The notes beneath the pieces were generated by a model. It worked only from the letters and a program-made list of their open reading frames with translations, was not told the DNA's origin and ran no database searches. A stretch of DNA of 64,000 nt, taken from Eledone cirrhosa (Eukaryota). Made by a program: the position numbers and the translations under genes. The stretch is from the NCBI GenBank assembly GCA_964016885.1, contig CAXHJY010000903.1, positions 1 to 64,000 of the forward strand, in the 5' to 3' direction. Of this stretch, positions 38,968 to 39,746 are shown in pieces (positions within the stretch are counted from its first letter, which is position 1; each line of letters starts with the position of its first letter).

Positions 38968-39027
<60 letters not shown>

Positions 39028-39184
39028 TGTTATACTTTGGGAGGGTCATGTTGCCAATAAGAAACACACGCACCAGTTGCTTTCACTTCAATTTAATTTA
39101 ATATATATTTATAAATTTACAAATTTATAAATTTCTGGTTGGTTGGTTGGTTCCACAACCAGATAGTTGTTTATATATATATAT

Positions 39185-39229
39185 AGTCATAGTTCTTTCG
39201 TCACACACTCTGTGACCTCTTCAGTGACT
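39185..39229 (-). ncRNA. Minimal type I hammerhead ribozyme (left arm)
   Basis: AGTCA-CTGAAGA-g-GTCACA(gagtg)TGTGAC-GAAA-GAAC-TA-TGACT. Confidence 0.7.
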
Positions 39230-39477
39230 GGGGATTTCTTTCTTCGTTTCTGTGCCTTTCCTTTCTTCTATCCTACGCCATTTTGTTTGTGTGTGGGTTG
39301 CGTGCTCAGTTTGCGCATGCGCCACATCCGGGTGTCTGTGTGTGTTTGTGTTCATTTTTCTATTTTTCTATTTATATTTGTTTGTTTATTTATTTATTTA
39401 TTTATTGTTGGTTGGTTGTTTGTTCTATGTGTGTGTGTGTTTTCATTTTGTCTTGTGTGTGTTTTCATTTTGTGTGT

Positions 39478-39520
39478 GTCACTGAAGAGGTCACAGAGTG
39501 TGTGACGAAAGAACTATGAC
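39478..39520 (+). ncRNA. Minimal type I hammerhead ribozyme (right arm)
   Basis: GTCA-CTGAAGA-g-GTCACA(gagtg)TGTGAC-GAAA-GAAC-TA-TGAC; predicted cleavage after A39516. Confidence 0.7.
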
Positions 39521-39746
39521 TATATATATATATAAACAACTATCTGGTTGTGGAACCAACCAACCAACCAGAAATTTATAAATTTGTAAATTTATAAATA
39601 TATATTAAATTAAATTGAAGTGAAAGCAACTGGTGCGTGTGTTTCTTATTGGCAACATGACCCTCCCAAAGTATAACAATATCGGTTTCAACACACGATT
39701 TCAGATAAAGAATCTTGCTAAACAAATTCAGAAACGATATATATAC

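Follow-up and report, generated by a model that had tools for sequence, protein, structure and literature searches.

Paired hammerhead motifs in Eledone cirrhosa as the product of a Penelope-like element inserting into (TA)n

In a 64,000-nucleotide stretch of the Eledone cirrhosa genome (the window; contig CAXHJY010000903.1), two hammerhead ribozyme motifs lie head to head within a palindrome flanked by TA repeats, raising the question of whether this element is a mobile RNA family in its own right or a product of some known class. The original prediction was a young, non-coding, self-cleaving family parasitising a Penelope-like element (PLE). The PLE origin stands, but not the parasite, as the arms and tail proved to be the PLE's own end. 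We are highly confident that the 714-bp element is one 5′-truncated insertion of an abundant autonomous PLE, comprising an inverted, short-ended and a direct, tail-ended copy of its pseudo-LTR, likely derived from two separate reverse transcriptions primed on two cut (TA)n strands. Its identification as a PLE insertion is supported by identity to the pseudo-LTR and ORF start of a parent element, two fixed outer ends, variable inner ends, a unique microhomology junction and TA flanks.

The longest exact inverted repeat at the locus is 205 bp (39024–39228 and 39478–39682), confirming that the arms are identical, and encloses a 249-bp interior. The left arm is inverted and runs on the minus strand from a hammerhead to the short terminus of the PLE pseudo-LTR at ATG+25. 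The right arm, on the plus strand, is a 5′-truncated direct copy that begins at the first base of hammerhead stem I and, with a 55-bp tail found on that side only (39683–39737, plus strand, between the two fixed termini), spans ATG-177 to ATG+80. (TA)n-type arrays flank the element on the left, target side (38400–39023, continuing further left) and on the right (39738–40400, continuing further right). As anticipated, each arm has a minimal type I hammerhead motif at its inner edge, the left copy at 39186–39228 (minus strand, predicted cut after 39190) and the right copy at 39478–39520 (plus strand, predicted cut after A39516). The element is not non-coding, as the parent ORF begins at an ATG at 39657 and its first 27 codons are present (MTLPKYNN..., 39657–39737, plus strand).

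The interior had been regarded as a promoter-like spacer. Judged from its sequence, it is the natural pseudo-LTR/3′UTR region upstream of the left hammerhead (39229–39479, minus strand) and not a separate module: together with the left arm it forms, on the minus strand, one unbroken pseudo-LTR from ~420 nt upstream of the ATG to ATG+25, and it differs from two long family copies by 4–5 mismatches in 460 columns. Two putative motifs were found where they had been placed, one that we take to be NRF1-like (TGCGCATGCGC, 39312–39322) and one presumably YY1-like (CGCCATTTTG starting at 39276, or CAAAATGGCG on the minus strand, 39276–39285); factor binding at both is putative.

The inverted and direct copies join at a 2-nt microhomology (39478–39479). 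With up to one mismatch allowed, a 32-mer across this inner junction matched the 3.0-Gb genome once, at the window itself, and the 714-bp unit is thus not a family. This result largely refutes the idea of a non-autonomous, palindromic two-ribozyme RNA family, similar to retrozymes, that PLE machinery copies as a 714-nt unit; a short unit that combines promoter-like motifs with a pair of hammerheads speaks for such a family, which we nevertheless consider very improbable. The junction also bears on a possible assembly artefact, in which repeats within (TA)n arrays were collapsed or joined chimerically. The window contig is short and repeat-rich, the arms are 100% identical and the junction is read from the assembled sequence, all of which would suit an artefact; against it, the microhomology is clean, and the same architecture and outer ends recur at 49 loci of a 443-Mb contig and at a second site in the window, so there is little chance that misassembly accounts for the element.

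Several other repeats were seen in the window. Two tiny insertions of the same family lie inside one 2.4-kb TA array: an inverted short end plus 33 bp of tail, without a hammerhead (20404–20542), and a 28-bp stub ending at the short terminus (20682–20709, plus strand). An older, related pseudo-LTR (52990–53425, plus strand, left boundary approximate) has the same order of NRF1-like motif, YY1-like motif and hammerhead and ends at the same short terminus in TA; in its hammerhead, changes in stem II are compensated and a core C is replaced by G. To the left of the element, a 143-bp tandem repeat of ~5 copies (37032–37732) is unrelated to it. Two diverged copies of a 73-bp repeat (40758–40830 and 40992–41064) resemble what we take to be a common cephalopod SINE fragment.

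The hammerhead motif reads GTCA-CTGAAGA-G-stem II (6 bp)-GAAA-GAAC-TA-TGAC, with stem II formed by GTCACA-loop-TGTGAC, and folds into stems I and II. The descriptor matched once in the real 509-nt stretch and in none of 5,000 dinucleotide shuffles. An Rfam scan of 39030–39735 (E ≤ 10) returned no hammerhead and two weak unrelated matches, and TA-driven matches of miRNA type appeared among 150 of the 192 rows for 38000–41000; with no hammerhead match from Rfam, the motif is assigned from our descriptor, its fold and agreement with the minimal consensus in the literature. Minimal type I hammerheads have been described from metazoan PLEs, including dual copies on opposite strands 100–700 bp apart in Schistosoma (Cervera and de la Pena 2014, PMC4209133). 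The motifs described there share with ours the CUGANGA/GAAA core, an extra base before stem II, the G10.1-C11.1 pair, a short stem I, the lack of a stable helix III and the 100–700 bp spacing of opposite-strand pairs, whereas loop III here (A-GAAC-U) is only partly palindromic and cleavage is a prediction. In a related subfamily, two base pairs of stem II are altered on both sides, and subfamilies have either A or U at the cut site (107 motifs, 50 distinct, 40 parsed).

To which element do the arms belong? A 42-mer spanning the ATG and tail has 9,724 exact matches in the 3.0-Gb genome, compared with 0 for the reversed control, so the terminus does have other copies. In 424 cases the match continues from the tail into the ORF, a count inflated by at least one tandem array. 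We examined 20 such loci and five other regions, of which L078 is intact. It consists of a TA run, an inverted truncated copy with the short terminus, a pseudo-LTR, the ORF, a second pseudo-LTR, the tail and a TA run, and is 99% identical to the window arm and tail. As a canonical PLE with a C-terminal nuclease would, it has pseudo-LTRs, partial tandems, an inverted 5′ copy and a one-sided tail, and its pseudo-LTR contains the hammerhead by motif and fold. Elsewhere, the tail-to-ORF junction is tandemly amplified, with at least 12 repeat units of 46 bp (G000:C1:132947037-132947576). Full head-to-tail tandems of the element (units of ~4.1–4.4 kb), together with a 2.6-kb duplicated unit, occur at L067, L068 and L208, which are candidate source loci for read-through RNA.

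The single ORF of the intact copy encodes 1268 aa (L078:2246-6052; G000:C1:154963745 onward), and thus the reverse transcriptase (RT) and GIY-YIG reading frame expected on this terminus was recovered. The protein combines telomerase-related RT motifs with a C-terminal GIY-YIG nuclease (NVVY at 1162, two Cys, YIG at 1181 and two His near 1211; CCHH). Pfam detected RVT_1 and GIY-YIG in the RT–nuclease part, each with E = 2.5e-4 and below the curated cut-offs, and 0 families when given the full 1268-aa protein. A sequence search of the PDB returned the I-TevI nuclease (E = 0.18) and, with a profile, bacterial RTs (E = 5e-6 and 0.0035). In a predicted structural model (mean pLDDT 86.6), the top six Foldseek matches were telomerase RTs. 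The best protein match is a hypothetical protein of Octopus vulgaris (67% identity). Residues ~255–385 form a long low-complexity stretch rich in asparagine, histidine and threonine, in which many copies frameshift; N-rich inserts have been described in rotifer PLEs (PMC3846280).

One feature sets the parent apart. RT motifs 3 and 4 are 128 aa apart in L078 and 124–131 aa apart in homologues in which both motifs were found, compared with roughly 60, 80 and 115 aa for canonical PLEs, a Naiad and human TERT, respectively, as counted by eye from a published alignment (Craig 2021, PMC8557442, Fig. S1). The difference reflects a conserved insertion of ~60 aa at the position of the telomerase fingers insertion, modelled with high confidence and as mostly helical. 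Canonical PLEs are treated in that paper as having no insertion in the RT fingers, sporadic Coprina cases aside, and the parent RT may mark an unnamed lineage.

In other respects the parent resembles Nematis, going by the figures of the same study (Figs S1, S2 and S7). Both have a C-terminal GIY-YIG with CCHH, and in the parent, as in three Nematis rows, 7 residues separate a CX4CX2C linker from the cysteine that precedes GIY; this 7-residue spacing agrees with the reduced CX2-5CxxC linker given for the clade. In contrast to the 128 aa of the parent, the Nematis rows have ~60 aa between RT3 and RT4 (counted by eye). The likeness is one of linker spacing and domain layout, and any placement within the clade is provisional. 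Neptune was considered and rejected, as its rows have ~28–30 residues where the parent linker has 7. The proposal of a Naiad-clade parent also failed on the position of the nuclease: Naiads are described with an N-terminal nuclease, DKA and no canonical hammerhead, whereas in the parent the nuclease is C-terminal, DKSG replaces DKA and a hammerhead motif is present (PMC8557442). Naiads do share the (TA)n preference and are present in octopuses, and those of cephalopods are called inactive remnants in that paper. For O. vulgaris, a repeat annotation lists 31 recently active Penelope-like families (PMC13282606). Our literature search returned no description of this PLE family or of its insertion mechanism, and the family may already stand in Repbase or Dfam.

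To determine how typical the window element is, we compared family copies. Of the first 100 matches to the 42-mer, 90 were analysed with their flanks (the other 10 were omitted, most lying in longer separate regions), covering the first ~107 Mb of one 443-Mb contig, with a selection by exact pattern that favours conserved copies. An adjoining inverted part was present in 60 of these 90 consecutive tail-bearing copies, and the palindrome is therefore a routine product of insertion. By alignment coordinates 24 of the 90 span both hammerheads, and 11 have two intact cores head to head. The right flank is TA-rich in 78 of the 90, compared with 343 of 2,133 window tiles, which bears out the suspected (TA)n bias; the young age proposed for the element was likewise upheld. 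The outer end of the inverted part lies exactly at ATG+25 in 49 of the 54 copies in which it is visible, giving the family two fixed outer ends, ATG+25 (short) and ATG+80 to +85 (tail). At each natural terminus the sequence is AATAT and then CG, which allows either one to pair with a (TA)n end. Genome-wide, the short end plus TA has 13,378 exact matches and the tail end plus TA up to 15,125, some counted twice. Inner ends, by contrast with these fixed termini, differ from copy to copy, at odds both with copying of a fixed unit and with a mobile family separate from the PLE.

A second, independent set was selected through the hammerhead. Of the first 100 among 4,067 genomic matches to a hammerhead 35-mer, 48 fall into 24 head-to-head pairs, compared with 1 tail-to-tail pair. 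In 19 of the 20 head-to-head pairs listed, a short end is combined with a tailed end (the remaining pair is cut by the locus edge and is unclassified), and the same holds for two further pairs collapsed by de-duplication. If ends were chosen independently, 19 of 19 short-plus-tail pairs would arise with a probability of 2e-6. The stretch of template copied twice within an insertion ranges from 30 to 826 nt.

These products suggest a mechanism in which the RT/GIY-YIG protein, probably as a dimer, would nick both (TA)n strands, the two nicked 3′ ends annealing to the element RNA at different positions, one at its short site and one at its tail site. Each cDNA would then be extended upstream until the enzyme stalls or reaches the RNA 5′ end, and the two would be joined head to head at their far ends; where both have passed the hammerhead motif, two hammerheads would result. 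We infer the dimer and twin-priming steps from genomic products alone, and a target-site duplication is unreadable inside (TA)n. Twin priming is a known mechanism of L1 insertion and is similar, except that here the two arms overlap on the template.

The biochemistry of a related element agrees in part. For the Poseidon element PAc of Anolis, the experiments reported by Frangieh 2024 (PMC11167929) place two RT start sites within the ORF start that define the tail, on an AT-rich target, with both strands cut and extended in vitro and a predicted dimer. The same report finds PAc start sites that are not strand-specific and lack homology to the target, whereas here the arms use different sites that match the target at AATAT; a point against the proposed mechanism is that neither the one-short-one-tail rule nor the AATAT match has a counterpart in PAc. 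Measured against canonical PLE units with a C-terminal nuclease, as described by Arkhipova 2013 (PMC3846280) and Craig 2021 (PMC8557442), the parent is alike in having a pseudo-LTR that includes the first ORF codons, an inverted 5′-truncated copy at the 5′ side, a tail at one end and microsatellite targets. An inverted copy with a one-sided tail is indeed a typical PLE insertion (PMC8557442, Fig. 2; PMC3846280). The tail is longer here (55–60 bp versus 30–40 bp), and what our counts contribute is that both termini lie at AATAT matching the target, and that short and tailed ends are strictly paired.

How PLEs come by their inverted ends and tails is listed among the open questions in PMC8557442, and the route preferred in PMC3846280 is self-priming with an antisense template. 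Under such a scheme the insertion would have the same PLE origin, with the inversion arising from one RNA by fold-back self-priming or template switching, possibly on an antisense or tandem read-through transcript with two pseudo-LTRs. A tandem transcript would offer two sets of start sites. The arms within an insertion are closer to each other than to those of other insertions (median mismatch 3.1% versus 9.2%; 31 copies, 8 of them mis-extracted), which fits a single source RNA. Simple fold-back, however, cannot yield inverted-arm sequence that is missing from the direct arm. Both the window element and 19 of 49 copies have an inverted part that continues upstream beyond the point where the tailed part stops, while the tail is confined to the direct part, so neither arm is a fold-back of the other. 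We regard an inversion from one RNA as unlikely, though clearly less so than a retrozyme-like family or a misassembly.

Inner ends, while variable, are not evenly spread. The hammerhead-selected set comprises 96 arms (99 rows less 3 duplicates), 50 of which end within view, and 32 of these 50 ends lie between ATG-220 and -252, corresponding to 12.9 per 1,000 nt at risk compared with ~0.9 elsewhere, a ratio of 13.8. The tail-selected set agrees, with 12 of 85 ends at ATG-236 to -250. In the window this zone (39271–39303, minus strand) overlaps the YY1-like motif and has the NRF1-like motif immediately upstream of it, and the pile-up likely marks a transcription start region, in keeping with the promoter proposed for the spacer. 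A G precedes 18 of the 30 ends whose first templated base is A, compared with 3 of 18 other ends (p = 0.006); the rows are not independent, some of the G bases could derive from the partner arm, and the set includes a few false ends. RTs are known to add an extra base opposite the cap, and the sequence pattern suggests that the G before A-starting ends is such a base. Promoters and start sites lie within the pseudo-LTR in the PLEs of D. virilis (PMC2377424) and Chlamydomonas (PMC8557442), in the accounts given there.

The 5′ edge of the hammerhead, where the direct arm of the window begins, is a possible second hotspot, accounting for 8 of 85 ends (ATG-171 to -183) in the tail-selected set. 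The hammerhead-selected set shows no enrichment there: 6 ends fall between -167 and -219, or 1.23 per 1,000 nt at risk, and the values for the next stretches upstream are 1.12 and 0.67. We considered an intron that ends at stem I, as in the D. virilis Penelope, and set it aside: the 49-nt candidate is purine-rich, and no spliced junction was noticed among the inner-end rows inspected.

The hotspot also informs the choice among explanations. Near-perfect two-hammerhead palindromes recur (in 13 of the 24 head-to-head pairs, the 35-mers are <250 bp apart) and two independent loci, L156 and L202, have one junction in common, as a unit-copied RNA family would predict, but recurring junctions sit at the common 5′-end hotspot and can thus repeat without unit copying. 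For an inversion from one RNA, arms that both stop at the putative start region would require either a pair of RNA 5′ ends or two rounds of copying from one RNA. Hotspot junctions at L198 and L222 carry short repeated fill-ins copied from the junction, as in end-joining repair.

Could the two hammerheads act? In predicted folding, either full read-through RNA pairs arm with arm, and the pairing probabilities of stems I and II both fall to 0. This agrees with the earlier claim that a read-through transcript would mask its own ribozyme, and is a further point against a family propagating by two ribozymes. The claim does not extend to RNA started internally: the promoter-like motifs face only the left arm, so such RNA would have one hammerhead and no 205-bp hairpin. 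For RNA running leftward from 39285, folding predicts stem II with a probability of at least 0.96 and stem I with ~0.55. The left-facing promoter could at most make this short RNA with one hammerhead, and the window insertion is most likely inert. None of 85 direct-copy 5′ ends lies between ATG-170 and -135, an interval that includes the predicted cut site, and the genomic copies thus give no sign of hammerhead cleavage in vivo. We regard the hammerhead as the ordinary ribozyme motif of the parent's pseudo-LTR; the prediction is for weak cleavage, in dimeric form or aided by protein.

Retrozymes provide the remaining comparison, with their definition taken from a preprint (bioRxiv 10.64898/2026.07.22.740005); PMC12602865 likewise supplied definitions. 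Non-LTR retrozymes carry a type I hammerhead of PLE origin in a unit without an intact ORF, but they are fixed-length head-to-tail tandems copied as a unit, whereas the window element is a one-off head-to-head stub with a unique junction.

Collectively, the window element is an ordinary product of a known class and not a new RNA family. Beyond this, we tentatively propose, with somewhat less than even confidence, that the parent represents an unnamed C-terminal-nuclease PLE lineage pairing a Nematis-type nuclease with a telomerase-length fingers insertion, and that its young insertions record a two-RT integration in which each cut (TA)n strand primes at its own AATAT site, one short and one tailed, each cDNA runs to the capped 5′ end and the two are joined head to head. 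If true, such integration would account for the combination of inverted copy and tail in PLEs and would locate the promoter from DNA alone. The fingers insertion bears on the link between PLEs and telomerase. With thousands of young copies and an intact ORF in one genome, the family is a useful one: the copy census yields testable specifics on the formation of PLE inversions, and direct predictions for an in vitro system such as that of PMC11167929 follow from the one-short-one-tail rule, the match of the termini to the target and the 5′-end hotspot. For a cephalopod-like host, head-to-head stubs of this kind could, on their sequence, plausibly give rise to double-stranded RNA.
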